Shown here: positions 35,023 to 64,000 of the stretch, one piece after another
Layout: each line of letters starts with the position of its first letter
How positions within the stretch are numbered: the stretch's first letter is position 1
Assembly (NCBI GenBank): GCA_050273025.1
Contig: CP158635.1
Span: 15,004,001 to 15,068,000, forward strand
Source: Cenococcum geophilum
Lineage: Eukaryota
Direction: 5' to 3'
DNA: 64,000 nt
Notes under the pieces: generated by a model
What the model saw: the letters and a program-made list of their open reading frames with translations, nothing else
The model's database searches: none
What the model was told of the DNA's origin: nothing
Position numbers and translations under genes: made by a program

Positions 35023-35513
35023 AATGTGCACGACCAGCTTTTACCTCCCCCCCCTTTAGCGAGTGCTCCAAAATTTTAAATTCGGTACGCGCATCTAATC
35101 TCGCTAGTAATTGTAGCGAACGGTTATAGCTACACGCAAGGACCATTTTGGTTGCCATGGAGAATTATTCTAGTTGGCCAGGAAAATCAAATTTAGAACT
35201 TACTTGACGACGCTCCCCTAATATATATTTCCTTAACGTACGCTTCCTCTTTTGCTTATGCCTCCGCCAAAACGCGAATATAAAGCCGTCTCCGCAATTG
35301 CCGATGAAATTTGGCAATGTTGTATGGGTGGAAACCTACGGTATTGACGAAGATCACGACACTACAAAACCAAAGTTCTTGCAGCCAAGCATGCGGCTTC
35401 GCTACAATTACTATATACAGTTGGTGGCGACCAGACGAGATTAGATGCGCGTACCGAATTTAAAATTTTGGAGCCCTCGCCGAAGGGGGGGGTGGAAGCT
35501 GGTCGTATACATC
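35023..35513. mobile_element. ~490-bp non-coding TIR element (M1)
   Basis: ~80-bp TIRs (atgtgcacgaccagctt...catctaatctcg) plus an inner inverted pair tagtaattgtagcgaa / ttcgctacaattacta. TSD not resolved. Confidence 0.8.
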
Positions 35514-35784
35514 AATAGTATGTCTACAGTTCGATTTATATAGCTGAATCAGCCGCTAAGTCACGATTTGGCAGGCAGGAGGCCCGTGCGCTTAGCGCTA
35601 TATGGATGTTACCCCTATCCACAGTCGATCTTCGATCGCCAGCAACGCCGCAGCAACGTCGCGCTCTTGATACCCGTTAAGCGGTATGCGTAGAGCTGTC
35701 CGAGGGCTCTTTACTCGCACTAAGATGGTAAAAATTAGCTATAGATTAATAGAGATATTTGTGTTTTAGATTAGGCGCCGCTAT
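35514..35784 (-). repeat. ~270-bp 'tail' segment, inverted copy upstream of Crypton 1
   Basis: Reverse complement of 44043-44314, 46983-47254 and 52976-53229. Same orientation as the copies at 53718, 59710 and 62632. Confidence 0.9.
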
Positions 35785-35790
35785 TATATA

Positions 35791-38453: not shown

Positions 38454-38471
38454 TATATAATAGCGGCGCCT

Positions 38472-41400: not shown

Positions 41401-44040
41401 GTAAGGAATAGCTGAAGATGGTTTATAAATAAGTATACTACTAACCTAAGCCTCCCCTATAATAAAGGTCTCTAGAGAATAGTAAAATAGGTAAAGAAAA
41501 AGGCGGGACGCCTAGTAGAAGACCTATACCTTCCGCCCCTACGAAGACTAGGTAAATTACTGGCTATAAGCAACAATAATAAGAAGGTAAAGATCCTTAT
41601 AGAAAGATTTTCCCCTTAACCAGCTTTAGTAGACCTTAGTAATATTATAGGTAAAGCACCGGTAACTTGCTTAAGGGTTAATAGTAATATAATAATTAAA
41701 GAAATGGCCAGAACTATTAGCCGCCTTTTAAATAATATAATACTAGGACTAGATAGGATCTTAAATAAAGCCCTAAAGACCTATGGACTACTAATAGCAC
41801 TTTGGCTTATAAATATAGCTAGAGTATACTTTGTAATAGGCTACTACCCAAGACTTAGAAGAGCTATAACAACGTTTATCCTATATAAAGAAGGTAAAGT
41901 AGACTACTTACTTCTAGGGAGCTACCGCCCTATTGCCTTACGGTAATAGCGAATTATATAGTAGATACGGCTAAGGAATATGCCTTACTACTACAAAGCT
42001 AAATAGGGGTAAGAAAGAACCGCTTAACACTATTAGCACTTACGCTACTTGCTACCACTATTAAATCTATATAGGCGATGTGAAAGGACTTTATAGTATT
42101 AATACTTAGCCTAGATATTAGTAGCGCCTATAATAACGTACCCTATAAGCGTCTCCTATATATTCTTAGGGTAAAAGGCTTCCTAGAATAGATTATATAA
42201 TTTATTTAAGGGTTTATAGGTTAAAAAGAAATATTATTAGTCTTTAGCGGATATTAAAGCCCCCTTATTATAGTTGCAACAGGAATACTATAAGGATTAC
42301 CCCTCTTACCTATACTCTTCCTTTTCTTTATAAGCAACCTACTTAACTTCTTTAAGGAAGGGGTGACCTAGGGGATAGGCTTTATTAACGACACAAACCT
42401 AATTATATATGGGCTAATAGCCGTAGAAAATTATAGAACACTAAAAAAAGCTTATAATACCTATATAAAATAGGCAAGACAATATAAAGTCTAATTCTTA
42501 CTAGAGAAATACTAGCTAATCTATTTTATAAGAAAACGCAACTAATCTATAGATCTTTAGCATATAATTTATATTTAAGGCTTTAGGGGTTAACTAGTTT
42601 AGGGCCTAAGAGTATTAGGAGTATAGGTAGATAGTAAGCTCTAATAGAGCGTATATACGGCGTAAGCGGCCTATAAGGGCTAAGTATAGTATATTATATT
42701 ATCTAGGATTGTTAACTCTATATAAGGTCTATACTTTTAAAGGTCACGCCTACTATATATAGTAGTTGTCCGGCTAACCATAATATATAGGTCCAGTATT
42801 TGGGCCATTAGAGAATCTAAGAAAGGCCCCCCTAAATCGCTCCTTAAACCACTCTAAAAGGTCTAAATAGCCTGCCTCTAGAGTATAATAGGCGGATATA
42901 AGCAAATGGCTATAGTACTACTTAAGAAGGAAGCTAATATTCCCCCCCTATAACTATATATTAAAGCCGCTGCAATATAAAGGGCGTAAAAGAAACGTAA
43001 CTCTAATATTATAAAGTATATTAAGATACGCCTAAATAAACTATAGAGGGACCCTAGGGCGCCTTATAGGAGAATAAACTAATAACCCTAAAGTAGGGAA
43101 GATATATTGGAGAAATAGGTAAAAAAAGTAGAAGAAAAATAGTGCTGCTTTAGGGCCTAGGCCTATATAGAGGAGAAAAGGAAACGTATAAGAGGCCAGT
43201 AAGGATAATAGTAAGAAAGAGAAAGGAGCTAAAGTAGAGTATAAAAGAACGCTAGGAAACCATCTACTATAATATAATACTGGCTGGACTAACGCTAGAG
43301 AGGTATATAGGAGTTAAAGGTATAGAGGCTAACTAAGGTAAGAGAAACCTAGGCTGTAGCATAGTTAACGCTATAAGGGGTAAACACCCTAGGGCTTTAA
43401 AAAGGCCTAATAAAGGTAGAAAATATAATAGTAATACTCTTAAGAATAGGAATAATAGGACTAAAAGACTAGCTCTACTAGGTGGGTATCCTAGTAAATA
43501 GCCTAAAATATAAATATAGCTAGCTAAAATAGACACTAAAATACGTAATACTGTTATGCCCCTTATACACTAACTAAGAAGTAATACTCTTAGTAGCTAG
43601 TATAGAGAACTATAAGACACTACTCTTAATATAAAAAGGCCTTAAGGCGGTTACCTAGTGGCTTATTAGCTAAAATATACTAAACTAGTTTTAGGTTATA
43701 AAGGAAATAATAATAGAGGGTAGGGGGGCGAGTAATGGGCGCCCCCTAATAACTCTATAGTAGTAGAGTAAAGTATACAATACTAGCGCGTCCGTAGGCT
43801 TATTACGGCAGTAGTGGTTCCTAAAGAGGTTAAAAAGTAAGGTAGTAGGAGCACTATAGGTGACTTATAGGCGCCTTATAGGCGCCTTATAGGCGAGTCC
43901 TAAAAGGTAAAAAGATAGATTACGGGGTTTTCTTAAGTTAAGTCTTTCTTAAGTTGAGTTTTCTCCCTATATATAAATAAGGAGTAGTCCGCGTAGGCCC
44001 AATAGGGATCTAAATTAAACGTTAAGTAATAAATTATTAT
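38472..44040 (+). mobile_element. LINE (Tad1-like) non-LTR retrotransposon, apparently full length, RIP-inactivated
   Basis: 14-bp TSD TAATAGCGGCGCCT (38458-38471 and 44041-44054) and a short (ATT)n tail. ORF1 has degraded Cys/His knuckles (~39600-39740). ORF2 carries endonuclease and RT motifs. Confidence 0.9.
40350..43750 (+). pseudogene. LINE ORF2 relic (apurinic endonuclease + RT)
   Basis: ILTIQEP (~40438), GDINLH (~40750), LDHIPI (~40984), GSYRPIAL (supplied ORF 41704-41946), GIL*GLPLLPILFLF (~42282), GFINDT (~42378). Confidence 0.85.
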
Positions 44041-44314
44041 TAATAGCGGCGCCTAATCTAAAATGTAAATATCTCTATTAACCTATAGCTAATTCTTACC
44101 ATCCTAGTGCGAGTAAAGAGCCTTTAGATAGCTTTACGCATACTATTTAACAGGTATTAAAAGCGTAATATTACTACGGCGTTACTGGCGATTAAAGATC
44201 AACTGTAGATATAGGGTAATATCTATATAGCGCTAAGCGTACGGGCCTTCTACCTACTAAATCGTGACTTAATAGCTAATTTAGCTATATAAATTAAACC
44301 GTAAATATACTATT

Positions 44315-46976
44315 AGTGTTTATAGCTTAGCTAAGCGCCCGCTTAGTCGCTAAGCCGCATATAATATATATAACCCCTATTAATATTTACAGATGTTTAT
44401 AGCTAAGCCTACAGCTAAGCCGTGGATATCTTTAAATATCTTTACCCCTACTAATTAAGTCGCTAATACGCGTATACTATTAGCCTATTAGCCCAGCTGT
44501 GCGCCCGTTTATTTACCCTATGCGGTAAAATTACTTATCTAGTAGGTATGCTTTCTCTACCTCTTCTCCCTAGTCTATATCTGCGTATATAGGAAAATAG
44601 GAACCCCCCCTTAGGGCGCAGCTTCTTTAGCAGCGTCCTATATATCTTAAAAATGCTATTAATTAGTCGCGTAAAGATTAACGTTATAAATAATGCTAAA
44701 CTACGCGCTAATACGCAGAGTATTCTTACCTTTATATATTCTAAGAGACCTAAAAATACGTCTCTAAATTATAAGCTAAAGTAGAAAGAGTTTAAGGTAA
44801 GTAGGTAGGTGCTTTATAGAGTAGTATATTTATAACTAACGCGTGTCTTTCTAGGCCTTTTATAAGCAAAAGTAGTATTATAATAGAAATACCGTTATAG
44901 AAAAGAAGCTACTTTTTTTTCTTATTAAGGAGGTTATAGGCCGGCCACTAAAAGTAAAAAGCCGTAAGGCTAGTAATAATATGCCCTAGGATAAGACACG
45001 GCTCTCCTAGCGCTTAGTTTATAGCTATATTACTACCCTAACGGACCTTTATTAGACGTAGAAGGGTATAGGGATAAATAACTACTAGTCCCTACGGGAG
45101 GATAATATTAGGGATTACCTAAAGGTTCTATAATAGAGGGACGCGTAGTAGGAAAAAGAGTAGTTTATAGATAAGGGTAGGGATATACTACTTAACGAAT
45201 ATATAGAGGATAAGTTTAAGAGCGTCTACCGCGAGCTATAGGCCTATAGAGACTTCTTACTAAAATACTACCTTTATACGCTTATAGATATCCTACTAAG
45301 CCACTATATACTTACCTATAGCGGCAATAGGCGCTCCGCCAAGATCTTAAACCTATTTACCTTTAAGTTTAAAGGGGAAGGTCCTACGCGCTATATGCCC
45401 CTAATATTTACTATACGCGCTAGTAAGTAGAACTGGTATAGTCGCCTTAAGACTATTAGAGCTCTATATAATAAAAAGCCGCTTATTTATATGCTTAGTA
45501 GGCTAGCTTTCTACCTCCTATATTACTAGGACTTTAGTAATAAGCTATTTCTAAACTTTAGTAAGCGGTTAGAGTAGTATAATATCCGCCTAATTAAGAG
45601 CAGTGCTGGGGACTATAAGACGGCCTTTTTATATAACTTATAGTGGAAGTAGGTTACTAAGGTATTCTAAGCCGTTGGCGTCTTCTTATAGAAGAAAACC
45701 TATATTAGGTAAAGCGCTAGCGCTAAAACAGCGGAGCTAAAAGGGTTTAGTAAGGACTAGATTAGACACGCTAGTAGGTAAAACTAGAAGTAGATAGTTA
45801 GCTACTATTTAAACTTGCTACCGCGGGAGTTTATATAGATAATAGCCGGCTATTTACTGTAAATAGGCTGCTTTAAGATTTATAGGGTAAGCGTCGCCCC
45901 CCCTAATATACTACTGTTAACGATCTAGCCAGAGCTAGATATCTAGAAGGGTTAGTTTAGCCCTTAAGTTAGTTAAGTTAACAACCTCGCGGCTATAGGC
46001 GCTATAAACCTCCTATTTTATCTCTAGAAGGTTATCCTATAGGACTTAGTAGTCCTCCGCAAGATATTCCTAAGTAGCCCTATATAGAACCACCCGGTCT
46101 TTTAGTATAAGGCCTATCTACCCTTTACGCGGAAGGTTAAAGCCTACCTATAATAGGAGGAAGAAGGCCTTAGCTAGCTATTAATACTTTACTAAGCTAT
46201 ACTAGCTATTATAAACCGCCTAAAGACTATAGACGCCTAAGTATGTAAGCTATAAGTATTATTTAACCGTATAGCCGAGTCCTAGTAGGCGCAGTCTTTA
46301 TAGCTTTAATTGCTTATATCTAGCAGCCTTACCTTTTAGCTTAAGGTCCCTTTAGCATTTATATATTCGCGTCTAATAGTATACTTACTAATAGTATATC
46401 TATTAATAGTATATCTACTAGCGCCTTTATCTATTACGGAATTAAGCTAGGATATATTAGCCCGGGTAAGTACTATAGCTTCCCCTTTACTAGCGCCGCC
46501 GTAGCTATAGCTATAGCTATAGCCGTAGTAAGGGCCTAAGCCCAAGTAGCTGCCTAAGTAGCCGCCTATATATTATATATGCCGTATAATAAAGTCCGTA
46601 TAGGCCCTTTGGCGCAAGTAAACTAAAGGGCTTAAAGGTAATCCTTCTATAGTAGCGTTAGATTCTAAATAGGGTAGTAGATAGTAGGCTAGCTAGTAGA
46701 ATAAACTCTAATAGTACTCCCTACGGCTTAAGGTTATTAAGGAGATTAGGCAGATTATATAGGCCTAGAGGGTTAGCGAGGAAGCGGCTATATAGTAGGT
46801 TAATTAATAGTAGGAGTAAATGCAGTGCTTATTAGATTAGCTTTATAAACGGCTTTAAGTAGGTAGAAAAGCTTTAAAATAGTATATATATCTAACTTCT
46901 AAGAAGTCCTCTTAAAGCCTTTATCTATAGCCCCTTAGGGGCTTATTTTAGTGCGGTATAAGTTTAGTAGGGTACT
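44315..46976 (+). mobile_element. Crypton copy 2 (ORF relic ~44653-46880)
   Basis: Collinear with copy 1. Followed by TATATA and the tail. Period to copy 3 is 2940 bp. Confidence 0.9.
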
Positions 46977-47254
46977 TATATAATAGCGGCGCCTAATCTA
47001 AAATATAAATATCTCTATTAATCTATAGCTAATTTTTACTATCCTAGTTCGAGTAAAGAGCCCTTAGATAGCTCTATGTATACTACTTAATAGGTATTAA
47101 GAGCGCGACATTACTACGGCGTTGCTAGCGATTAAAGATCGACTATAGATATAGGGTAATATCTATATAGCGCTAAGCGTACGGGCCTTCTACCTACCAA
47201 ATTGTAACTTAGCGGCTGATTTAGCTATATAAATTAAACTATAGATATACTATT

Positions 47255-49916
47255 AGTGTTTATAGCTTAGATAAGCGCCTACTTAGTTACTAAGCCGCAT
47301 ATAATATATATAACCCCTATTAATATTTGCGGATATCTACAGCTAAGCCTATAGCTAAGCCGTGGACATCTTTAAATGTCTTTACCCCTACTAATCGAGT
47401 TGCTAATACGCGCGTACTATTAGCCTATTGGCCTAGCCGTGCGCCCGTTTATTTACCCTATACGGTAAAATTACTTATTTAATAGGTATATTTTCTCTAC
47501 CTCTCCTCCCTAGTTTATATCTGCGTATATAGGAAAATAAAAACCCCCCCTTAGGGCGCAGCTTCTCTAGCAGCGTCCTATATATCTTAAAAATGCCATT
47601 AATTAGTCGCGTAAAAATTAACGTTATAAATAATACCGAACTACGCGCTAACGCGTAGAGTATCTTTTTCCTTATATATTCTAAGAGACCTAAAAATACG
47701 TCTCTAAATTAGAAGCTAAAGTAAAAAGAGTTTAAGGTAAGTAGGTAGGTGCTTTACGGAGTAGTATACTTATAACTAACGCGTGTCTTCCTAGGCCTTT
47801 TATAAGCGGAAGTAGTACTATAACAGTAATACTATTACGGAAGAGAAGCTACTTCTTTTCCTTATTAAGGAGGTTATAGGCCGGCTACTAAAAGTAAAAA
47901 GCTATAAGGCTAGTAATAATATGCCCTAGGATAAAACGCGGCTCTTCTAGCGCTTAGTTTATAATTATATTACTACCTTAATAGACCTCTACCGGACGTA
48001 GAAGGGTATAGGGATAAATAGCCACTAGTCCCCGCGGGAGGATAACATTAGGAATTACCTAAAGGTTTTATAATAGAGAGACGCGTAGTAGGAAAAGGAG
48101 TAGTTTATAGATAAGGGTAGGGATATACTGCTTAACGGATATATAAAGGACGAGTTTAAGAGCGTTTACTGCGAGCTATAGGCCTATAGAGACTCCTTAT
48201 TAAAATACTACCTTTATACGCTTATAGATATTCTACTAGGCCACTATATACTTACCCGCGGCGGTAATAGGCGCTCCGCTAAGATCTTAAACCTATTTAC
48301 CTTTAAGTTTAAGGGGGAAGGTCCTACGCGCTATATGCCCCTAATATTTACTATACGCGCCAGTAAGTAGAACTAGTATAGCCGCCTTTAGACTATTAGA
48401 GCTCTATATAATAAAAAGCCGCTTATTTATATATTTAGCGGGCTAGCTTTTTACCTCCTATATTACTAGGACTTTAGCGACAAGCTATTCCTAAACTTTA
48501 GTAAGCGGTTAGTGTAGTATAATATCCGCCTAATTAAGAGCAGTGCTGGGGACTATAAGACGGCCTTTTTATACAACTTATAGTGGAAGTAGATTACTAA
48601 GGTATTCTAAGCTATTGGCGTCTTCTTATAGAAGAAAACCTATATTAGGTAAAGCGCTAGCGCTAAAATAGCGGAGCTAAAAGGGGTTAGTAAGGATTAT
48701 ATTAAACGCGCTAGCAGGTAAAACTAGAAGTAGATAGTTAGCTATTATTTAAACTTACTACCGCGGGAGTTTATACGGATAATAGCCGGCTATTTACTAT
48801 AAATAGGCTGCTTTAAGATTTATAGGGTAAGCGTCGCCCCCCCTAATATACTACTATTGACGATCTAGCCAGAGCTAGACATCTAAAAGGGTTAGTTTAG
48901 CCCTTAAGTTAGCTAAGTTAATAACCTTGCGGCTATAGGCGCCATAAACCTCCTGTTTTATCTCTAGGAGGTTATCCTATAGGACTTAGTAGTCCTCCGC
49001 AAGATATCCCTAAGTAGCCCTATATAGAACTACCCGGTCTTTTAGTATAAGGCCTATCTACCCTTTACGTAGAAGGTTAAAGCCTATCTATAATAGGAGG
49101 AAGAAGGCCTTAGCTAGTTATTAATACTTTACTAGGCTATACTAGCTATTATAAACCGCCTAAAGACTATAGACGCCCGAGCACGTAAGCTATAGGTATT
49201 ATTTAACCGTATAGCTAAGTCCTAGTAGGCGCAGTCTTTATAGCTTTAATTACTTACATCTAGCAGCCTTACCTTTTAGCTTAAGGTCCCTTTAGTATTT
49301 ATATATTCGCGTCTAATAGTATACTTACTAATAGTATGTCTATTAACGGCATACCTACTAGCGCCTTTATCTATTACGGAATTAAGCTAGGATATATTAG
49401 CCTAGGTAAGTACTATAACTTCCCCTTTACTAGCGCCGCTATAGCTATAGCTATAGCTATAGCCGTAGTAAAGGCCTAAGCCTAAGTAGCCGCCTAAGTA
49501 GCCGCCCGTATATTATATATGCTATATAGTAAAGTCTATATAGGCCCTTTGGCGCAAGTAGACTAAAAGGCTTAAAAGTAATCCTTCTATAGTAGCGTTA
49601 GATTCTAAATAGGGTAGTAAATAGCGGGCTGGCTAGTAGAATAAGCTCTAATAGTACTCCCTATGGCTTAAGGTTATTAAGGAGATTAGGCAGGTTATAT
49701 AGGCCTAAAGGGTTAGCGAGGAAGCGGCTATATAGTAGGTTAATTAATAGTAGGAGCGGATATAGTACTTATTAGATTAGCTTTGTAAACGGCTTTAAGT
49801 AGGTAAAAAAGCTTTAAAATAGTATATATATCTAACTTCTAAGAAGTCCTCTTAAAGCCTTTATCTATAGCCCCTTAGGGGCTTATTTTAGTATAGTATA
49901 AGTTTAGTAGGGTACT
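47255..49916 (+). mobile_element. Crypton copy 3 (ORF relic ~47593-49820)
   Basis: Collinear with copies 1 and 2. Ends at TATATA and joins a truncated M element instead of the tail. Confidence 0.9.
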
Positions 49917-49924
49917 TATATAGT

Positions 49925-50303
49925 AATATATACAACTAGCTTCTACCCCCCCCTTAGTAAAAGCTCTAAAATTTTATATTTGGTACGCGTATTTAATCTC
50001 GCCTAATTGCTACTAACTATATATAGTAATTATAGCGAAGCTGTATACCTTAGCTGCAAGAACCTTACTTCTATAGTATTATAATCTTTATTAATATTAT
50101 AAGGTTTCCACCCCTATAATATTGCTAAATTTTATTAATAAGTGCAGAGATATCGTTATATTTGCGTTTTAGTAGGGGTATAGGCAAAAGAGAAAGCGTA
50201 TATTAAGGAAGCGTGCGTTAAGCAAGCTCTAAATTGCTTTAATTTAATTCCCCTAGCTAACTAGGGCGATTCCCTAGGGCAACTAAAAAGGTCCTTATGT
50301 ATA
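49925..50303. mobile_element. Truncated, diverged M-family TIR element (one TIR)
   Basis: Homologous to 53230-53610. Cut off where Crypton copy 4 begins. Confidence 0.8.
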
Positions 50304-50305
50304 TA

Positions 50306-52969
50306 GTGGTGTTTACGGCTTAGCTAAGCGCCTGCTTAGTTACTAAGCTATATATAATATATATAACCCCCGTTAACATTTACGGATATTTATAGCTAAG
50401 CCTATAGCCAAGCCGTAGACATCTTTAAATATCTTTACCCCTACTAATTAAGTCGCTAATACGCGCGTACTATTAGCCTATTAGCCCAGCTATGCGCCCG
50501 TTTATTTACCCTATACAGTAAGGTCACTTATCTAGTAAATATGCTTTCTCTACCTCTCCTCCCTAGTCTATATCTGCGTATATAGGAAAATAGGAACCCC
50601 CCCTTATAGCGCAGCTTCTCTAGCAGCGTCCTATATATCTTAAAAATGCCATTAATTAGTCGCGTAAAGATTAACGTCGTAAATAATACCGAACTATATA
50701 CTAACGCGCAGAGTATTCTTACCCTTATACGTTTTAAGAGACCTAAAAATATATCTTTAAATTATAAGCTAAAGCAGAAAGAGTTTAAGGTAAATAGGTA
50801 GGTGCTTTATAAAGTAGTATACTTATAACTAACACGCGTCTTCCTAGGCCTTTTATAAGCGGAAGCAGTACTATAACAGTAATACTATTACAGAAGAGAA
50901 GCTACTTTTTTTCTTTATTAAGGAGGTTATAGGCTAGCCATTAAAAGGAAAAAGCTGTAAGGCCAGTAATAACGTACCCTAAGATGAGACGCGGCTCTCC
51001 TAGCGCTTAATTCGCGGCTACGTTACTACTTTAATAGACCTCTACCGGACGTAGAAGGGTATAGGGATAAATAGCCACTAGTTCCCGCGGGAGAATAATA
51101 TTAGGAATTACTTAAAGGTTTTATAACAGAGGGATGCGCAGTAAAAAAAGAAGCAGTTTATAGATAAGGGTAGAGATATACTACTTAATAGATATACAGA
51201 GGATAAGTTTAAGAGCGTCTGCCGCGAGCTATAGGCCCACAAAGACTCCTTACTAAAATACTACCTCCGCACGCTTATAGATATCCTACTAGGCTACTAT
51301 ATACTTACCTACGGCGGCAATAGGCGCTCCGCTAAGATCTTAGACCTATTTACCTTTAAGTTTAAGGGGGAAGGTCCTATACGCTATATACCCCTAATAT
51401 TTACTATACGCGCCAGTAAGTAAAACCAGTATAGCCGCCTTAAGACTATTAGAGCTCTACGTAATAAGAAGCCGCTCGTCTATATACTTAGTAGGCTAGC
51501 TTTCTACCTCTTATACCGCTAGGACTTTAGTAATAAGCTATTCCCAGACTTTAGTAAGCGGTTAGTATAGTATAATATCCGCCTAATTAAGAGCAGCGCT
51601 AGGGACCGTAAGACGGCCTTCTCGTATAACTTACAGCGGGAGTAGGTTACTAAGGCATTCTAGGCCGTCAGCGTCTTTTTATAAAAGAAGACCCATATTA
51701 GGCGAAGCGCTAGCGCTAAAACAGCGGAGCTAAAAAGGGTTAGTGAGGACTAGATTAAATACGCTAGCAGGTAAAACTAAAAGCAGATAGTTGGCTGCTA
51801 CTTAAACTTGCTGCTGCGGGAGTTTATACGGACAATGGCCGGCTATTCGCCGTAAATAGGCTGCTTTAAGATTTATAGGGTAAGCGTTGTCCCCCCTAAC
51901 GTACTACTATTAACGATCTAGCTAGAGCTGGACGTCTAAAAGGGTTAGTTTAGCCCTTAGGTTAGTTAGGTTAATAACCTCGCAGCTATAGGCGCTATAA
52001 ACCTCCTATTTTATCTTCGGGAGGTTATCCTATAGGACTTAGTAGTCCTCCGTAAGATATTCCTAAGCAGCCCTATATAGAACCACCCGGTCTTCTAGTA
52101 TAAGGCCTATCTACCCTTTATACGGAAGGTCGAAGCCTACCTATAGTAGGAGGAAGAAGGCCCTAGCTAGCTATTAATACTCTACTAGGCCGTGCTAGCT
52201 ATTATAGACCGCTTAAAAACTATAAATACCTAAGTACGCGAGCTATAGGCGTTATTTAACCGTATAGCTGAGTCCTAATAGGCGCAGTCTTTATAGCTTT
52301 AATTACTTATATCTAGCAGCCTTACCTTTTAGCTTAAGGTCCCTTTAGCATCTATATATTTACGTCTAATAATATACCTACTAATAGTATATCTACTAAT
52401 AGTATGTCTACTAGCGCCTCTATTTATTACGGAATTAAGCTAGAATATATTAGCCTAGGTAAGCGCTATAGCTTCCCCTTTGCTAGCGCCGCCGTAGCTA
52501 TAGCTATAGCTATAGCTATAGTAAGGGCCTAAGCCTAAGCAGCCGTCTAAGTAGCCGCCCGTATATTATATATGCTATATAGTAAAGTCTATATAGGCCC
52601 TTTAGCGCAAGTAGACTAAAGGGCTTAGAGGTAATCCTTTTATAGTAGCGCTAGATTCTAAATAGGGTAGTAGATAGCGGGCTAGCTAATAAAATAAGCT
52701 CTAATAGTACTTCCTATAGCTTAAGGTTATTAAGGAAATTAGGTAGGTTACGTAGGCCTAAAGGGTTAGTAAGGAAGCGGCTATATAGTAGGTTAATTAA
52801 TAGCAGGAGCGGATATAGTGCTTACTAGATTAGCTTTATAAACGGCTTTAAGTAGATAAAAAAGCTTTAAAATAGTATATATATCTAACTTTTAAGGAGT
52901 CCTCTTAAAGCCTTTATCTATAGCCCCTTAGGGGCTTATTTTAGTGCGGTATAAGTTTAATAGGGTACT
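50306..52969 (+). mobile_element. Crypton copy 4 (ORF relic ~50646-52875)
   Basis: Collinear and somewhat less RIP-eroded (e.g. cggacaatggccggctattcgccg). Tail at 52976-53229. Confidence 0.9.
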
Positions 52970-53229
52970 TATATAATAGCGGTGCCTAATCTAAAACGCA
53001 AATATCTCTATTAACCTATGGCTAATTCTTACTATCCTAGTACGAGTAAAGAGCCCCTAGATAGCTCTACGTATAGCGCTTAACGGGTATTAAGAGCGCG
53101 ATATTACTATAGTATTGCTGGCGATTAAAGATCAACCGTAGATATAGGGTAATATTTATATGCTATTAAGCGTACGGGCCTCCTACCTACTAAATCGTGA
53201 CTTAGCGGCTAATTTAGCTATATACTATT

Positions 53230-53717
53230 AATATGCATAACCAGCTTCTACCCCCCCCTTTAGTAAGGGCTCTAAAATTTTAAATTCGGTACGCGTATCC
53301 AATCTCGCCTGGTTGCCACCAACTATATATAATAATTATAGCGAAGCCGCATACTTGGCTATAAGAACTTTAGTTCTACAATATTATAATCTTCGTTAAT
53401 ATTATAGGTTTCCACCCGTATAACATTGCCAAATTTTATTAGCAATTACGGAGACGGCTTTATATTCGCGTTTTGGCGGAGGTATAAGTAAAAGAGAAAG
53501 CGTACGTTAAGGAAATATATATTAGGGGAGCGTTATTAAGTAAGTTCTAAATTTAATTCTCCTAGCTAACTAGAATAATTCTCTATAGTAACCAAAATGG
53601 TCCTTATATATAGCTATAACCGTTTACTACAATTACTAGCGAGATTAGATACGCGTACCGAATTTAAAATTTTAGAGCACTTGCTAAAGGGGGGGGTGGA
53701 AGCTAGTTGTGTACATT
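53230..53717. mobile_element. M-family TIR element (M2) at the palindrome centre, inverted relative to M1
   Basis: Reverse complement of 35023-35513. Flanks are symmetric: tatactatt | M2 | aatagtata. Confidence 0.85.
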
Positions 53718-53995
53718 AATAGTATATTTACGGTTTAATTTATATAGCTAAATTAGCCGCTAAGTTATAATTTAGCAGGTAAGAGGCCCGTGCGCTTAGT
53801 AGTATATAGATATTACCCTATATTTATAGTCAATCTTTAATCGCCAGTAACGCCGCAGTAACGTTGCACTTTTAATACCCGTTAAGCGCTATGCGTAGAG
53901 CTATCTGGGGGCTCTCTACTCGCACTAGAATAGTAAGAATTAGCCGTAGGTTAATAGAGATATTTGCGTTTTAGATTAGGCGCCGCTATTATATA

Positions 53996-56659
53996 AGTAC
54001 CCTACTAAACTTATACCGCACTAAAATAAGCCCCTAAGAGGCTATAGATAAAGGCTTTAAGAGGACTTTTTAGAAGTTAGATATATATACTATTTTAAAG
54101 CTTTTTTACCCACTTAAAGCTGTTTATAAAGCTAATTTAGTAAGTATTATATCCGCTCTTACTGTTAATTAACCTACTATATAGCCGCTTCCTTACTAAT
54201 TCTTTAGGCCTATATAACCCACCTAATCTCCTTAATAACCTTAAGCTATAGGGAGTATTATTAGAGCTTATTTTGCTAGCTAGCCCGCTATCTACTGCCC
54301 TATTTAGAATCTAACGCTACTATAAAAGGATTACCTCTAAGCCCTTTAGTCTACTTGCGCTAAAGGGCCTATATAGACTTTATTATACGGCATATATAAT
54401 ATGCGGGCGGCTACTTAGGCAGCTACTTAGGCTTAGGCCCTTACTATAGCTATAACTATAGCTATAGCTACGGCGGCGCTAGTAAAGGGGAAGCTATAGC
54501 GCTTACCCGGGCTAATATATCCTAGCTTAATTTTATAATAGATAGAGGCGCTAGTGGACGTACTATTAGTAAACATGCCGTTAGTAAGTATATTATTAAA
54601 CGCAAATATATAAATGCCGAAGGGACCTTAAGCTAAAAGGTAAGGCTGCTAAATATAAGCAATTAAAGCTATAAAGACTGCGCCTACTGGGACTCGGCTA
54701 TACGGTTAAACAACGCCTATAGCTCGCGTACTTAGGTATCTATAGTCTTTAGGCGGTTTATAATAGCCGGCATGGCCTAGTAGAGTATTAATAGCTAGCT
54801 AGGGCCTTCTTCCTCCTACTATAGGTAGGCTTTAACCTTCTGCGTAAAGGGTAAATAGGCCTTATACTAGAAGACCGGGTGGTTCTATATAGGGCTGCTT
54901 AGGAATATCTCGCGGAGGACTACTAAGTCCTATAGAATAACCTTTTGGAGATAAAATAAGAGGTTTATAATGCCTATAGCCGTAAGGTTATTAACCTAGC
55001 TAACCTAAGGGCTAAACTAACCCTTTTAGATGTCTAGCTCTGGCTAGATTGTTAATAGTAGTATATTAGAGGGGGCGATGCTTGCCCTATAAATCTTAAA
55101 GCAGTCTATTTACGGCGAATAGCCGGCTATTATCTATATAAACTCCCGCGGTAGCAAGTTTAAGTAGTAGCTAACTATTTACTCCTGGTTTTACCTACTA
55201 GCGCGTCTAATCTAGTCCTTACTAACCTCTTTTAGCTTTACTATCTTAGCGCTAGCGCTTTACCTAATATAGGTCTTCTTCTATAAGAAGACGCTAACGG
55301 CCTAAAATACCTTAGTAACCTACTCCCGCTGCGAGTTATATAAGAAGGCCGTCTTATAGTCCCTAGCGCTACTTTTAATTAGGCGGATATTATACTACGC
55401 TACCCGCTTGCTAAAGTCTAGGAATGGCTTATTACTAAGGTCCTAGTAGTATAGAAGGTAGAAAGCTAGCCCGCTAAGTATATAGATGAGCGGCTTCTTA
55501 TTACGTAGAGCTTTAATAGTCTTAAGGCGGCTATACTAGTTCTGCTTACTAGCGTATATAGTAAATATTAGGGGTATATAGCGTATAGGACCTTTCTCCT
55601 TAAACTTAAAGATAAATAGGTCTAAGATCTTAGCGGAGCGCCTATTACCGCCGCGGGTAAGTATATAGTGGCCTAGTAGAATATCTATAAGCATACGGAG
55701 GTAGTATTCTAGTAAGGAGTCTCCGTGGGCCTATAGCTCGCGGTAGATGCTCTTAAACTTGTCCTTTATATATCTATTAAGTAGTATATCTTTACCCTTA
55801 TTTATAAACTGCTCCTTTTCCCGCTATATATCCCTCCGTTATAGAACCTTTAGGTAATTCCTAATATTATCCTCCTATAGGGACTAGTGGCTATTTATCC
55901 CTATACCCTTCTGCGTTTGGTAGAGGTCCGTTAGGGTAGTAATATAGCCGCAAACTAAGCGCTAGGAGAGCCGCGTCTCGTCCTAAAGTACGTTATTACT
56001 AGCCTTACAGCTTTTTTCTTTTAGTGGCCGGCCTATAACCTCCTTAACGAGGAAAAGAAGTAGCTTCTCTTCTATAACGGTATCGCCGTTATAGTACTGC
56101 TTCCGCTTATAAAAGGCCTAGGAAGACGCGCGTTAGTTATAAGTATACTACTTTATAAAGCACCTACCTACTTACCTTAAACTCTTTCTACTTTGGCTTA
56201 TAATTTAAAGACGTATTTTTAGGTCTCTTAGAACGCGTAAGGGTAAGGATACTCTACGCGTTAGCGCGTAGTTTGGCATTATTTGTAACGTTAATCTTTA
56301 CGCGACTAATTAATAGCATTTTTAAGATATATAGGACGCTGCTAGAGAAGCTGCGCTATAAGGGGGGGTTCCTATGTTCCTATATACGCAGATATAGACT
56401 AGGGAGAAGAGGTAGAGAAAGTATACCTACTAGATAAGTAATTTTACCGCATAGGGTAAATAAACGGGCGTACGGCTGGGCCAATAAGCTAATAGTACGC
56501 GCGTATTAGCGACTTAATTAGTAGGGGTAAAGACATTTAAAGATATCTACAGCTTAGCTATAAGCTTGGCTATAGACATCCGCGAATATTAATGGGGGTT
56601 ATATATATTATATATGGCTTAGCGACTAAGCGGGCGCTTAGCTAAGCTATAAACACCAC
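53996..56659 (-). mobile_element. Crypton copy 5 (mirror of copy 4; ORF relic ~56319-54090)
   Basis: Reverse complement of copy 4 with the same junction to a truncated M element. Confidence 0.9.
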
Positions 56660-56661
56660 TA

Positions 56662-57040
56662 TACACGTAAGGACCTTTTTAGTTACCCTAGGGAATCGCC
56701 CTAGTTAGCTAGGGGAATTAAATTAAAGCGACTTAAAGCTTACCTAACGCACGCTTCCTTAATATACGCTTCCTCTTTTATCTATACCCCTACTAAAACG
56801 CGAATATAATAATGTTTCTATAATTATTAATGAAATTTGGCAATATTATAGGGGTAGAAACCTTATAATATTAACGAAGATTATAATACTATAGAAGCAA
56901 GGTTCTTGCAGCTAAGGTATATAGCTTCGCTATAATTACTATATACAGTTGGTGGCAATTAGGCGAGATTAAATGCGCGTACTAAATGTAAAATTTTAGA
57001 GCTCTTACTAAGGGGGGGGTAGAAGCTGGTTGTACACATC
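56662..57040. mobile_element. Truncated M-family element (mirror of 49925-50303)
   Basis: Reverse complement with matching breakpoints. Confidence 0.8.
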
Positions 57041-57048
57041 GCTATATA

Positions 57049-59709
57049 AGTACCCTACTAAACTTATACCACACTAAAATAAGCCCCTAAGGGGCTATAG
57101 ATAAAGGCTTTAAGAGGACTTCTTAGAAGTTAGATATATATACTATTTTAAAGCTTTTTTACCTACTTAAAGCCGTTTATAAAGCTAATCTAATAAGTAC
57201 TATATCCACTCCTACTATTAATTAACCTACTATATAGCCGCTTCCTTACTAACCCTTTAGGCCTATATAACCTGCCTAATCTCCTTAATAACCTTAAGCC
57301 GTAGGGAGTACTATTAGAGCTTATTCTACTGGCTAGCCCGCTATTTACTACCCTATTTAGAATCTAACGCTACTATAGAAGGATTACTTTTAAGCCTTTT
57401 AGTCTACTTACGCTAAAGGGCCTATATAGACTTTATTATATAGTATATATAATATGCGGGCGGCTACTTAGGCGGCTACTTAGGCTTAGGCCTTTGCTAC
57501 AGCTATAGCTATAGCTATAGCTATAGCGGCACTAGTAAAGGGGAAGCTATAGTACTTACCTAGGCTAATATATTCTAGCTTAATTCCATAATAGATAAAG
57601 GCGCTAGTAGATATGCCGTTAATAGATATGCTATTAGCAAGTATACTATTAGACGCGAATATATAAATGCTAAAGGGACCTTAAGCTAAAAGGTAAGGCT
57701 GCTAAATATAAGTAATTAAAGCTATAAAGACTGCGCCTACTAGGACTTAGCTATACGGTTAAATAATACCTATAGCTTACGTGCTCGGGCGTCTATAGTC
57801 TTTAGGCGGTTTATAATAGCTAGTATAGCCTAGTAAAGTATTAATAACTAGCTAGGGCCTTCTTCCTCCTATTATAGATAGGCTTTAACCTTCTGCGTAA
57901 AGGGTAGATAGGCCTTATACTAAAAGACCGGGTAGTTCTATATAGGGCTACTTAGGGACATCTTACGGAGGACTACTAAGTCCTATAGGATAACCTCCTA
58001 GAGATAAAATAGGAGGTTTATAGCGCCTATAGCTGCAAGGTTATTAACTTAGCTAACTTAAGGGCTAAACTAACCCTTTTAGATGTCTAGCTCTGGCTAG
58101 ATCGTTAACAGTAGTATATTAGGGGGGGCGACGCTTACCCTATAAATCTTAAAGCAGCCTATTTATAGTAAATAGCCAGCCATTGTCTGTATAAACTCCC
58201 ACGGTAATAAGTTTAAATAATAGCTAACTATCTACTTTTAGTTTTACCTACTAGCGCGTTTAATCTAGTCCTTACTAACCCCTTTTAGCTCCGCTATCTT
58301 AGCGCTAGCGCTTTACCTAATATAGGTTTTCTTCTATAAGAAGACGCCGATAGCTTAGAATACCTTAGCAATTTACTTCCACTATAAGTTGTATAAAAAG
58401 GCCGTCTTATAGTCCCCAGCACTGCTCTTAATTAGGCGGATATTATACTACACTAACCGCTTACTAAAGTTTAGGAATAGCTTGTTGCTAAAGTCCTAGT
58501 AATATAGAAGGTAGAAAGCTAGCCCGCTAAGTATATAAATAAGCGGCTTTTTATTATATAGAGCTCTAATAGTCTTAAGGCGGCTATACTAGTTCTACTT
58601 ACTAGCGCGTATAGTAAATATTAGGGGTATATAGCGCGTAGAACCTTCCCCTTTAAACTTAAAGGTAAATAGGTTTAAGATCTCAGCGGAGCGCCTATCG
58701 CCGCTATAGGTAAGTATATAGTGGCTTAGTAGGATATCTATAAGCGTATAAAAGTAGTATTTTAGTAAGAAGTCTCTATAGGCCTATAGCTCGCGGTAAA
58801 CGCTTTTAAACTTGTCCTCTATATATCCGTTAAGTAGTATATCCCTACCCTTATCTATAAACTACTCTTTTTCCTACTACGCGTCCCTCTATTATAGAAC
58901 CTTTAGGTAATCCCTAATATTATCCTCCTATAGGGACTAGTAGTTATTTATCCCTATACCCTTTTACGTCTAGTAAAGGTCCGTTAGGGTAGTAATATAG
59001 CCGTAAACTAAGCGCTAGGAGAGCCGTGTCTTATCCTAGGGCATATTATTACTAGCCTTACGGCTTTTTACTTTTAGTGGCCGGCCTATAACCTCCTTAA
59101 TAAGAAAAAAAAGTAGCTTCTTTTCTATAACGGTATTACTATTATAATACTGCTTTCGCTTATAAAAGGCCTAGAAAGACGCACGTTAGTTATAAATATA
59201 CTACTTTATAAAGCACCTACTTACTTACCTTAAACTCTTTCTACTTTAGCTTATAATTTAGAGACGTATTTTTAGGTCTTTTAGAATATATAAGGGTAAA
59301 AATACTCTACGTATTAGCGCGTAGTTTAGCATTATTTACAACGTTAATCTTTACGCGACTAATTAATAGCATTTTTAAGATATATAGGACGCTGCTAGAG
59401 AAGCTGCGCCCTAAGGGGGGTTCCTATTTTCCTATATACGCAGATATAGACTAGGGAGAAGAGGTAGAGAAAGCATACCTACTAAATAAGTAATTTTACC
59501 GTATAGGGTAAATAAACGGGCGCATGGCTGGGCTAATAGGCTAATAGTACGCGCGTATTAGCGACTTAATTAGTAGGGGTAAAGATATTTAAAGATATCT
59601 ACGGCTTAGCTGTAGGCTTAGCTATAAATATCCGTAAATATTAATAGGGGTTATATATATTATATATGGCTTAGCGACTAAGCGGGCGCTTAGCTAAGCT
59701 ATAAACACT
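57049..59709 (-). mobile_element. Crypton copy 6 (ORF relic ~59372-57145)
   Basis: Reverse-complement Crypton core at the mirror position of copy 3. Confidence 0.9.
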
Positions 59710-59987
59710 AATAGTATGTCCACGGTTTGATTTATATAGCTAAATTAGCTATTAAGTTATAATTTAGCAGGCAGGAGGCCTATACGCTTAGCGCTATATA
59801 GATATTACCCTATATCTACGGTTAATCTTTAATTACTAGTAACGCCGCAGTAACGTTACGCTCTTAATACCTATTAAGTAGTATATATAAAGCTATCTAA
59901 GGGCTCTTTACTCGCACTAGGATAGTAAGAATTGGCTATAGGTTAATAGAGATATTTACGTTTTAGATTAGGCGCCGCTATTATATA

Positions 59988-62631
59988 AGTACCCTATTAA
60001 ACTTATACCGCACTAAAATAAGCCCCTAAGGGGCTATAGATAAAGGCTTTAAGAGGACTCCTTAGAAGTTAGATATATATACTATTTTAAAGCTTTTTTA
60101 CCTACTTAAAGCTGTTTATAAAGCTAATCTAATAAGTACTATATCCGCTCCTACTATTAATTAACCTACTATATAGCCGCTTCCTCGCTAACCCTTTAGG
60201 CCTATATAACCTACCTAATTTCCTTAATAACCTTAAGCTATAGGGAGTACTATTAGAGCTTATTCTACTGGCCGGCCTATTATTTACTACCCTATTTAGA
60301 ATCTAGCGCTACTATAAAAGGATTACCTCTAAGCCCTTTAGTCCACTTATGCTAAAGGGCCCGTATGGACTTTATTATATAGTATATATAATATATAGGC
60401 GGCTACTTAGGCAGCTGCTTAGGCTTAGGCCCTTACTATAGCTATAGCGGCGCTAATAAAGAGGAAGCTATAGCACTTACCCAGGCCGATATATTTTAGC
60501 TTAATTCCGTAATAAATAGAGGCGTTAGTAAATATGCTATTGGTAAATATACCGTTAGTAGGTATGCTATTAGATATAAATATACGGATACTAAAGGGAC
60601 CTTAAGCTAAAAGGTAAGGCTGCTAAATATAAGTAATTAAAGCTATAAAGACTACGCCTACTAGGACTTAGCTATATAGTTAAATAATGCCTATAGCTTA
60701 CGTACTTAGGCGTCTATAGTTTTTAGGCAGTCCGTAATAGCTAGTACGGCTTAGTAGAGTATTAATAGCTAGCTAGGGCCTTCTTCCTCCTATTATAGGT
60801 AGGCTTCGACCTTCTACGCAAAGGGTAGATAGGCCTTATACTAGAAGACCGGGTAGTTCTATATAGGGCTACTTAGGAATATCTTACGGAGGACTATTAA
60901 GTTCTATAAAATAACCTCCCGGAGATAAAATAGGAGGTTTATAGCGCTTATAGCCGTAAGGTTATTAACCTAGCTAACCTAAAGGCTAAACTAACCCTTC
61001 TAAACATCTAGCTCTAGCTAGATTGTCAACAGTAGTATGTTAAGGGGGGTAATGCTTACCCTATAAATCTTAAAGTAGCCTATCTACGGTAAATAGCTAG
61101 TTATTATCTGTATAAACTCCCGCGGTAGTAAGTTTAAGTAATAGCTAACTATCTACTTTTAGTTTTACCTACTAGCGTGTCTAATCTGGTCCTTACTAAC
61201 CCCTTTTAGCTCTACTATTTTAGCGCTAGCGCTTCGCCTAATATAGGTCTTCTTCTATAAGAAGACGCCAACGGCCTAGAATACCTTAGTAACCTACTCC
61301 CGCTATAAGTTATATAAGAAGGCCGTCTTATAGTCCCTAGCGCTGCTCTTAATTAGGCGGATATTATACTACGCTAACTATTTATTAAAGTCTAGGAACG
61401 GCTTATTACTAAGGTCCCAGTAGTATAGGAGGTAAAAAACTAGCCCGCTAAGCATATAGATAAGCGGCTTCTTATTATATAGAGCTCTAATAGTCTTAAG
61501 GCAGCTATACTAGTTCTACTTACTAGCGCGTATAGTAAATATTAGGGGCATATAGCGCGTAGGACCTTCCCCCTTAAACTTAAAGGTAAATAGGTTTAAG
61601 ATCTTAGCGGAGCGCCTATTGCCGCCGCGGGTAAGTATATAGTGGCCTAGTAGAATATCTATAAGCGTATAAAGGTAGTATTTTAATAAGGAGTCTCCAT
61701 AGGCCTATAGCTTGTAGTAAACGCTCTTAAACTCGTCCTTTATATATCCGTTAAGCAGTATATCCCTACCCTTATCTATAAACTACTCCTTTTCCTACTA
61801 CGCGTCTCTCTATTATAAAACCTTTAGGTAATTCCTAATGTTATCCTCCCGCGGGGACTAGTGGCTATTTATCCCTATACCCTTCTGCGTCCGGTAGAGG
61901 TCTATTAAGGTAGTAATATAATTATAAACTAAGCGCTAGGAGAGCCGCGTTTTATCCTAGGGCATATTATTACTAGCCTTATAGCTTTTTACTTTTAGTA
62001 GCCGGCCTATAACCTCCTTAATAAGGAAAAGAAGTAGCTTCTCTTCCGTAATAGTATTACTATTATAGTACTACTTCCGCTTATAAAAGGCCTAGGAAGA
62101 CACGCGTTAGTTATAAGTATACTACTCCGTAAAGCACCTACCTACTTACCTTAAACTCTTTTTACTTTAGCTTCTAATTTAGAGACGTATTTTTAGGTCT
62201 CTTAGAATATATAAGGGAAAAGATACTCTACGCGTTAGCGCGTAGTTCGGTATTATTTATAACGTTAATTTTTACGCGACTAATTAATGGCATTTTTAAG
62301 ATATATAGGACGCTGCTAGAGAAGCTGCGCCCTAAGGGGGGGTTTTTATTTTCCTATATACGCAGATATAAACTAGGGAGGAGAGGTAGAGAAAATATAC
62401 CTATTAAATAAGTAATTTTACCGTATAGGGTAAATAAATGGGCGTACGGCTAGGCCAATAGGCTAATAGTACGCGCGTATTAGCAACTCGATTAGTAGGG
62501 GTAAAGATATTTAAAGATGTCCACGGCTTAGCTATAGGCTTAGCTGTAGATATCCGTAAATATTAATAGGGGTTATATATATTATATGCGGCTTAGTAAC
62601 TAAGTAGGCGCTTATCTAAGCTATAAACACT
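59988..62631 (-). mobile_element. Crypton copy 7 (ORF relic ~62293-60083)
   Basis: Reverse-complement core with a shorter (GCTATA)n tract. Tail at 59710-59981. Confidence 0.9.
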
Positions 62632-62909
62632 AATAGTATATCTATAGTTTAATTTATATAGCTAAATCAGCCGCTAAGTTACGATTTGGTAGGTAGAAGG
62701 CCTGTACGCTTAGCGCTATATAGATATTACCCTATATCTATAGTCGATCTTTAATCGCTAGCAACGCCGTAGTAATGTTGCGCTCTTAATACCTATTAAG
62801 TAGTATACGTAGAGCTGTCTAAGGGCTCTTTACTCGCACTAGGATAGTAAAAATTAGCTATAGATTAATAGAGATATTTATATTTTAGATTAGGCGCCGC
62901 TATTATATA

Positions 62910-64000
62910 AGTACCCTACTAAACTTATACCGCACTAAAATAAGCCCCTAAGGGGCTATAGATAAAGGCTTTAAGAGGACTTCTTAGAAGTTAGATATAT
63001 ATACTATTTTAAAGCTTTTCTACCTACTTAAAGCCGTTTATAAAGCTAATCTAATAAGCACTGCATTTACTTCTACTATTAATTAACCTACTATATAGCC
63101 GCTTCCTCGCTAACCCTCTAGGCCTATATAATCTGCCTAATCTCCTTAATAACCTTAAGCCGTAGGGAGTACTATTAGAGTTTATTCTGCTAGCTAGCCC
63201 ACTATCTACTACCCTATTTAGAATTTAACGCTACTATAAAAGGATTACCTTTAAGCCCTTTAGTCTACTTACGCCAAAGGGCCTATACGGACTTTATTAT
63301 ACGGCATATATAATATATAGGCGGCTACTTAGGCAGCTACTCGGGCTTAGGCCCTTACTATAGCTATAGCTATAGCTATAGCTACGGCGGCGCTAGTAAA
63401 GGGGAAGCTATAGTACTTACCCGGGCCAATATATCCTAGCTTAATTCCGTAATAGATAAAGGCGCTAGTAGATATACCATTAATAGATATACTATTAGTA
63501 AGTATACTATTAAACGCGAATATATAAATGCTAAAGGGACCTTAAGCTAAAAGGTAAGGCTGCTAGATATAAGCAATTAAAGCTATAAAAACTGCGCCTA
63601 CTAGAACTCGGCTATACGGTTAAATAATACTTATAGCTTACGTACTTAGGCGTCTATAGTTTTTAGGCGGTTTATAATAGCTAGTATAGCCTAGTAAAGT
63701 ATTAATAGCTAGCTAGGGCCTTCTTCCTCCTACTATAGGTAGGCTTTAACCTTCCGCGTAAAGGGTAGATAGGCCTTATACTAAAAAACCGGGTGGTTCT
63801 ATATAGGGCTACTTAGGAATATCTTGCGGAGGACTACTAAGTCCTATAGGATAACCTCCTAGAGATAAAATAGGAGGTTTATAGCGCCTATAGCCGCGAG
63901 GTTGTTAACTTAGCTAACTTAAGGGCCAAACTAACCCTTCTAGACGTCTAGCTCTGGCTAGATTGTTAACAGTAGTATATTAGGGGGGGCGACGCTTACC
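62910..64000 (-). mobile_element. Crypton copy 8, 3' part (runs off the window)
   Basis: Reverse-complement 3' portion of the core. Tail at 62632-62903 has no LINE insertion. Confidence 0.88.

Follow-up and report, generated by a model that had tools for sequence, protein, structure and literature searches.

CryptonF transposons are said to have been described by Goodwin et al. in 2003. The ways in which Cryptons move and increase in number are poorly understood, and the model in which a circle is released and integrated is two decades old. According to the available text of Kojima and Jurka (2011, PMC3212892), CryptonF elements combine a recombinase with a GCR1_C (DNA-binding) domain, have short terminal direct repeats and lack terminal inverted repeats (TIRs), and NDC10_II is taken as the Crypton recombinase domain. 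Cryptons are called "generally low copy number" in the accessible part of another account (PMC8969392). Here we analyze a 64,000-nt stretch of Cenococcum geophilum DNA (contig CP158635.1, positions 15,004,001 to 15,068,000; the window), in which CryptonF-type elements form two tandem arrays that face each other across a short hairpin module (Hp). CryptonF elements are dispersed and generally low-copy in the accessible part of that account (PMC8969392), whereas the present family forms concatemers of two to four units at 12 of 74 related loci and a mirror pair in the window, where all copies have been killed by repeat-induced point mutation (RIP). An earlier note on this DNA named no description of such an array, and full-text literature searches likewise yielded no account of tandem, head-to-tail or palindromic Crypton arrays in the text available. 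New here are the concatemer habit of a CryptonF family and the palindrome; the CryptonF family itself is known.

The first active Cryptons were reported in 2023 (PMC9977147). The available text of that study attributes inversions and translocations in Chlamydomonas, with breakpoints at target-like sites, to CryptonF-1_cRei (Lopez-Cortegano et al. 2023). The window resembles this system in its opposite-orientation copies and target-like breakpoint sites, and copy number rises there despite an excision-based model. The Chlamydomonas events are conservative and were seen in real time, with no tandem strings or palindromic duplications described in that available text, whereas the window event that we infer is old and duplicative.

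Our favored history of the window locus, which we consider fairly probable, begins with a concatemer beside Hp, continues with entry of elements at the Hp ends and a mirror duplication, and ends with RIP and exchange. In bacteria, tandem prophages and integrative elements form when integration regenerates the att core at both ends and further copies enter head-to-tail. The strings described below share with this tandem accretion the single core per junction; the bacterial case is prokaryotic, with defined att sites and integrases, and serves as an analogy only. Palindromic duplications are seeded by nearby inverted repeats in the yeast inverted-repeat fusion and fold-back models and in human DUP-TRP/INV-DUP rearrangements, and the window has in common with them a short inverted repeat, a loop of a few hundred base pairs and kilobase mirror arms. 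The yeast 2-micron plasmid has the Flp tyrosine recombinase, inverted FRT sites and two fixed 599-bp repeats, with recombination linked to amplification. Its likeness to the window, a tyrosine recombinase with inverted sites, is purely conceptual: the 2-micron case is a plasmid, and nothing in the window points to replication-coupled amplification.

Two facing arrays of one element

A repeat search of the window found an inverted pair at 47545-53224 and 53741-59420, with arms of 5,680 nt each, 91% complementarity and 516 nt between the ungapped arms; kilobase-long arms at about 90% identity exclude chance. The arm coordinates (47545 + 59420 = 53224 + 53741 = 106965) reproduce the landmark sum of the earlier note. 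Its count of four plus copies facing four minus copies was borne out by blastn of one unit against the window, which placed the former at 35794-38462, 44311-46985, 47251-49925 and 50309-52978 and the latter at 53987-56656, 56660/57043-59713, 59979-62635 and 62901-64000, where the right arm runs off the window. Its centre of about 490 bp has to be revised: with gaps allowed, the arms end at 53308 and 53639, leaving 330 bp unpaired. On the plus side, the direct repeats of the same search were spaced by 2940 and 3053; on the minus side the spacings were 3053, 2921-2939 and 2922-2940, of which 2921/2939 reflect an 18-bp deletion in the body of one element (A').

A complete element consists of a 2,675-bp body (K) and a 265-bp 3′ tail (a). 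The unit order is D, A, B (no a), b, C, Hp, C', b', B' (no a), A', D', and the special junctions are identical and mirrored. On the plus strand, the body of D lies at 35792-38470, with its own tail beyond an insertion, at 44046-44310. Element A follows at 44311-47250 (K 44311-46985, a 46986-47250) and then B at 47251-49925, a body whose tail is missing and which retains an open reading frame (ORF) remnant at about 47921-49826 in the frame of 47252. Between B and C lies b (49926-50303), a partial and older copy of the hairpin module that covers module positions 1-378. Element C (50304-53230) has K at 50304-52978 and a tail with an 18-bp deletion, and starts TATAG·TGGTGTT (a dot marks a junction). 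The centre, at 53220-53727 and without assigned strand, is Hp, and both of its ends are joined to an element 3′ end. On the minus strand stand C' at 53722-56661 (a 53722-53986, K 53987-56661), the mirror copy b' of the partial module at 56660-57042, B' at 57043-59713, which lacks its tail at the junction where B does, A' at 59714-62635 (a 59714-59978, K 59979-62635; the 18-bp deletion is private to it), and D' at 62636-64000 (a 62636-62900, K 62901-64000), cut by the window end.

Sequencing reads were compared with the assembly. Some words of the window occur in 20 of 24 runs, and four runs from two samples were mapped, the longest listed pieces being 100-250 bp. Depths in three runs of one sample were 17, 115 and 30 at 50112-50265, 22, 107 and 28 at 56700-56886, and 19, 116 and 27 at 53294-53416. 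Arm-specific and centre pieces thus have equal, single-copy-like depth, which speaks against a collapsed or doubled assembly. Such pieces recur in a run of the second sample with 1-4 differences. The summed word depth, 10-60 times that of single-copy pieces, is not a copy number. Joints such as 50035 to 56662 contained extra letters, probably from other copies, and were not used.

An assembly artefact, with two real arrays wrongly connected at the centre or a chimera formed by fold-back, is very improbable. It would be helped by the repetitive nature of the family and by the small size and age (2010-2015) of the runs that contain window words. The arrangement itself is weakened by the fact that no read or contig spans the centre, so that the long-range order is that of the assembly. 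The equal depth in three runs speaks against an artefact, as does the arm divergence of about 9% by RIP-type transitions, which, in line with what the earlier note had argued, excludes a fold-back of one molecule. Further points against it are that Hp is complete at the centre and canonically joined on either side, that a related locus (L062) has the same Hp structure, and that the loop piece 53281-53478 was found in the second sample with three differences. A mis-join at the centre is unlikely, and we take the tandem array to be truly duplicated in inverted orientation, each arm having RIP differences of its own.

Identity of the array unit

The ORF listing held no open frame of at least 80 aa between 44 and 64 kb, and an Rfam scan of the window gave 0 matches. 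We therefore read the copies as protein with X at every stop. One of the six K frames of copy B matched NDC10_II in Pfam (E 1.5e-40, aa 253-602), with a GCR1_C match (E 1.2e-3, 19.5 bits) below the 23-bit cut-off. There were 53 homologous proteins, whose source names belong to Sordariomycetes and Dothideomycetes and include Chaetomium; the best match, of 628 aa, shows 59% identity (E 2.5e-228) and has both domains. Copy B aligned collinearly with these relatives without a frameshift, its X residues falling where the relatives have Q, W or R. The intact relative P0004 matched NDC10_II at 5.8e-90 and GCR1_C at 1.1e-19, and a profile of intact relatives matched solved Ndc10/Cbf3a chains at 7.3e-5. 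Residues R113, R117, R118, H241 and Y276 (P0004 numbering) are invariant in 10 intact relatives, and by their spacing they may represent the R-H-R-Y tetrad of tyrosine recombinases. The arginine of the HxxR motif is present in most of the ten and replaced by Q or H in two. In the window copies this motif, damaged in most, reads TYIR followed by a stop, TYIRQ, THIRR or TYIRR.

For the element ends we used a comparison set of 74 related loci from metagenomes, retrieved by a profile built from intact relatives; in 46 of them a copy has over 1 kb of sequence next to it. Since a directly follows K in 28 of the 74 loci, the 265-bp "spacer" is the element's own 3′ tail, and a full element, K plus a, spans 2,940 bp. 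The other "spacer", b (378 bp), is a copy of part of the hairpin module found at the centre. For annotation, such "spacers" belong to the element and its target, and a Crypton need not be dispersed and low-copy. The element's 5′ end reads T(G/A)GT(G/A)TT in 23 of 24 outer left junctions with unrelated flanks, and the 3′ end, in the array right ends seen, is ...ACTATTGATGTT, then unrelated flank. No TIR was found at the K/a boundaries. Two other definitions were dropped: long terminal inverted repeats (a minus-strand and a plus-strand tail around D), because the 28 loci show a as a plain 3′ tail, and a 3′ end at position 246 of a, because array ends elsewhere show the 18-bp gap in the tail of C to be a deletion.

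The element resembles CryptonF in its single protein with a tyrosine-recombinase domain and GCR1_C, in its lack of TIRs, and in its fungal hosts, which include Chaetomium. Its terminal direct repeats are about 7 bp, versus the 6 bp given in the available text of PMC3212892. By its domains and homologs the unit is a Crypton, as the earlier note had held, and it is a new member of the known CryptonF family.

Head-to-tail strings at related loci

By tblastn, 11 of the 74 loci have between two and four copies, repeated every 2883-2989 bp, and blastn found exactly abutting copies in nine; the union is 12 loci, which, judged by contig-name prefix, come from three data sets. The arrays begin and finish at identical element coordinates and so contain whole numbers of elements (2-4 complete units). 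All 15 inner junctions read ...ACTATT(G/A)GT(G/A)TT..., and adjacent elements are joined through one shared 7-bp core, TGGTGTT. A check for tandem or inverted clusters in other genomes had been suggested; it gives these tandem strings at 12 loci and a head-to-head pair at L063. On comparison of these loci, head-to-tail strings are therefore a habit of the family and no peculiarity of the window locus.

The single core at each junction and the lack of flank between units are as expected of site-specific integration, serial or multimeric, at a core that is regenerated, and point to recombinase-made concatemers; the first dimer cannot be the product of unequal crossing-over. In the first step of the favored history, as comparative anatomy suggests, the tyrosine recombinase would integrate a circle through the 7-bp core (TGGTGTT/TGATGTT). 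After integration the resident element would have a core at either end, through which more circles or multimeric circles could enter, and the 2,940-bp element would form a head-to-tail string beside the 0.5-kb Hp with exactly one core per junction. Exact one-core strings at a dozen loci are the footprint that the circle model predicts when the ends of resident elements act as targets. Movement by an excised circle and site-specific integration is indirectly supported by the one core per junction and by the empty and filled Hp ends described below.

A broader proposal is that the family multiplies as concatemers, with the recombinase integrating circles, including composite ones, at regenerated cores, and that two-ended targets give mirror arrays. 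We regard it as doubtful. If true, such multiplication would be a eukaryotic counterpart of bacterial tandem accretion and, conceptually, of Flp-type inverted-site amplification, and would help to explain the rise in Crypton copy number despite an excision-based model.

Among 48 full-length relatives, 10 have no stop, and all of these are solitary (L003, L005, L006-L011, L018 and L025). These stop-free relatives are candidates for still-active elements.

The hairpin module as a two-ended target

The ends of the central Hp are 89-nt inverted sequences (53220-53308 and 53639-53727; 91% complementary) around a 330-nt loop, and as single-stranded DNA the module has a predicted fold of -104 kcal/mol (z -12.3). 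Hp adjoins an element 3′ end in three further loci (L015, L062 and L063). The Crypton core occurs once per inverted Hp end, 5 bp inside. Unoccupied ends read CTACAG·TGATGTG·CAC in L062 and, after RIP, GTATAG·TAATGTG·CAC at window position 35019, and occupied ends read ...ACTATTGATGT·(G/A)(C/T)AC; both ends of the central Hp are occupied. The module at the centre pre-exists as a natural element, one that L062 also carries.

Elements that enter either end of Hp point their 3′ ends at it, and a head-to-head pair is possible without fold-back. In the second step of the favored history, elements would accordingly enter at the inverted Hp cores with their 3′ ends toward Hp and make a head-to-head pair, the anatomy seen at the centre. 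The earlier reading of the locus as local amplification plus foldback is therefore retained in part: the inverted duplication is real, and a fold-back or break-fusion origin is not needed for the head-to-head pair, for which an Hp with inverted cores suffices. The 7-bp core and the two-ended hairpin target offer concrete substrates for the recombinase.

An independent head-to-head pair lies at L063:8991-11805, with its elements about 260 bp apart; the second is represented by its last ~440 bp only and lies inside the Hp loop. Equating this pair with the centre of the window was rejected, as the minus-strand element of L063 borders on sequence within the Hp loop.

Evidence for a mirror duplication

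Beyond the pair at the centre, the two arms share features that canonical insertion does not produce. In both, a tail-less element ends at the junction K...TTATATAGCG·ATGTGTAC (K joined to b without a), and a partial Hp (positions 1-378) is joined to an element at CGTGTA·TAGTGGTGTT. Between b and b' there is one transversion, whereas each differs from the full central Hp by 14-15 transversions (15 for b) and 4-6 indels. C and C' have transversions in common, two of them in K (columns 308 and 649) and two in a. A duplicative step is therefore required, as independent insertion cannot yield shared non-canonical junctions and shared transversions.

These same features bear on the proposal that two arrays grew independently at the Hp ends and were later made mirror-like by gene conversion between the arms. 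There is a target at each end of Hp, L063 supplies an independent head-to-head pair, inter-arm exchange is demonstrably frequent and the sharing of RIP sites between C and C' is near background. Yet the innermost units, which are the least homogenized (89%), already share the non-canonical b/K and K/b junctions, the 14-15 b-specific and the C-type transversions are common to both arms, and conversion would have to cover more than 3 kb including two heterologous junctions. We judge independent growth to be quite improbable.

In the third step of the favored history, one duplicative rearrangement would have copied the irregular string (tail-less element, partial Hp and another element) across Hp in mirror order. 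We favor a replication or repair error of the host between the close inverted repeats at Hp, by template switch or fold-back, over a recombinase route, and hold this mechanism tentatively, as a possibility somewhat short of an even chance. On the recombinase route, a composite circle, excised between direct cores (for example, of a sister chromatid), would have re-integrated at the opposite Hp core; in a variant, the recombinase would have made a break at a core that was then aberrantly repaired. The canonical junctions between element 3′ ends and Hp at both ends of the module fit this route, and so does the start of both C and D with TATAG·TGGTGTT, the signature of 5 of 24 solitary insertions. 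The few RIP sites common to C and C' would allow the event to date from intact copies, and the rearrangements and rising copy number of the active Chlamydomonas CryptonF, in the available text of PMC9977147, offer a precedent. Set against these points, the copied block departs from the canonical core junction where b (position 378) meets K and where K meets b, the material analyzed showed neither a circle nor a composite junction, and conservative recombination alone duplicates no DNA; the outer end of the right arm, where a canonical left junction is expected, lies beyond the window. We consider a recombinase-made mirror copy unlikely.

The left boundary of the array carries a further trace. 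A second Hp copy (Hp', 35019-35517, no assigned strand) has its loop flipped relative to the centre, and no element occupies the target at its outer end (35019). It is followed on the minus strand by an inverted element 3′ remnant at 35518-35790 (tail a at 35518-35781 and about 9 bp of K), which abuts the 5′ end of element D. Three tail-a copies thus flank two Hp copies of opposite loop orientation. A forward-inverted-forward template switch would explain the flipped loop and the extra inverted Hp copy at 35019-35781. An extra inverted, junction-proximal copy (35019-35790) at the far end of one arm is also a point of likeness to palindromes seeded by inverted repeats. The locus differs from DUP-TRP/INV-DUP in that its tail-a copies are not equivalent, its central module pre-exists as in L062, and its second junction is beyond the window.

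RIP sites were used to place the mirror step in time. Jaccard indices of RIP-site sharing among window copies were 0.583-0.806, with 0.73-0.81 for outer unit pairs, and no window copy exceeded 0.571 with copies at other loci. Array mates in the metagenome loci gave 0.519-0.794, and copies at different loci averaged 0.44. C and C' scored 0.614, barely above background, which places the mirror step before RIP or early in it.

Several observations weigh against the favored history. The near-background RIP sharing of C and C' leaves their kinship to few transversions and the shared junctions. The left ends of C and D both read TATAG·TGGTGTT, as in 5 of 24 solitary insertions, and so fit either origin equally well, recombinase or microhomology. 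Hp' and the central Hp differ by 0 transversions and 53 transitions over 375 bp, but this is weak dating, as only ~0.6-1.8 transversions are expected in 375 bp from the distance between A-type and C-type copies. A template switch predicts three equal tails, and the tail at 35518-35781 lacks the two transversions common to the tails of C and C'. Part of array growth was host-made: in the four-unit concatemer of L049 (391-12270), RIP-site Jaccard was 0.79 for copies 1 and 3 and 0.78 for copies 2 and 4, versus 0.58-0.62 for neighbors, and since alternate units share more RIP sites than neighbors do, a two-unit block was duplicated there after the onset of RIP. Finally, every array copy in the metagenome loci is dead, with 40-73 stops, and no concatemer was found in an active state.

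Exchange between and within the arms

Unit exchange was mapped by nearest neighbors in 200-column windows. A' corresponds to B over columns 0-1050 and to D over 1100-2680, B' corresponds to A over 0-1050 and to B over 1100-2680, and the 3′ part of D' corresponds to A. Taken in mid-element phase, the units run P-Q-R in the left arm and Q-P-R in the right. The swap of P and Q between the arms suggests unequal exchange, possibly with an extra unit beyond the window. The repeat search also found a shifted-register match between the arms, 45886-49480 with 60406-64000, at 95%, better than the mirror register. Within it lies a recent inter-arm exchange tract, whose left side at 45886-48300 (no assigned strand) matches 61586-64000, taken as reverse complement, at 98.1% identity; the two sides differ at 45 positions in 2,414 bp, 44 of them transitions, and beyond the tract identity falls to ~87%. 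The register of the tract is one unit off the mirror register, and since the window end cuts it, its length is at least 2.4 kb. Inter-arm exchange after the duplication is frequent at this locus.

In the last step of the favored history, RIP killed all copies, unequal exchange and gene conversion shuffled units between and within the arms, and an element resembling long interspersed nuclear elements (LINE-like) landed in the left arm. The mirror array illustrates how a small transposon may seed a 30-kb palindrome that is then reshaped by RIP, unequal exchange and inter-arm conversion.

Decay by RIP

All seven full window copies are dead, with 65-74 in-frame stops in 637 codons; after RIP, no enzyme was supplied by window copies. 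Full-length copy pairs differ by 141-318 transitions and 2-15 transversions (ratios of ~30-100:1), TpA/ApT is 2.07-2.19 and (CpA+TpG)/(ApC+GpT) is 0.22-0.31. This mutation spectrum is a RIP footprint, and the locus belongs to a RIP-competent filamentous ascomycete. The textbook target of RIP is CpA. Cytosines hit in at least one copy amounted to 148 of 163 in CpA (91%), 254 of 332 in CpG (77%), 159 of 530 in CpT (30%) and 63 of 275 in CpC (23%); CpG in the K copies was thus mutated nearly as often as CpA, broader than the textbook preference.

Between many family copies at different loci the transversion-only distance is 0, from which it follows that the family burst recently and that its divergence is due to RIP. 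For the same reason, transversion-only distances failed as a test of local duplication versus independent insertion.

Insertion in the left arm and surroundings

The first plus copy is parted from the others by a 5.6-kb, RIP-degraded, LINE-like insertion at 38471-44045 on the plus strand, with TAATAGCGGCGCC repeated at both ends. It has a weak RVT_1 match (E 1.7e-4, 21.8 bits, below the 29.6-bit cut-off) and a related copy in L050. As it is absent from the right arm, it is later than the mirror step. The insertion sits exactly at the K/a boundary of D, the same boundary at which the tail is deleted in B and B'; this boundary also lies 9 bp from the junction at 35790, so that three events fall within ~12 bp.

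To the left of the array, 33500-35018 belongs to another repeat family, members of which adjoin Crypton copies in L050, L064, L061 and L014; this family may be a favored host for insertions. Farther left, an ORF at 6276-6710 on the minus strand has a weak match to ZIP zinc transporters (E 2e-5, 24.4 bits, below the 35.1-bit cut-off), and nine other ORFs of at least 100 aa in 0.5-17 kb have no Pfam match. The stretch from 18000 to 34000 has a GC content of 27-32% and strong skews, and presumably consists of more RIP-degraded repeats.

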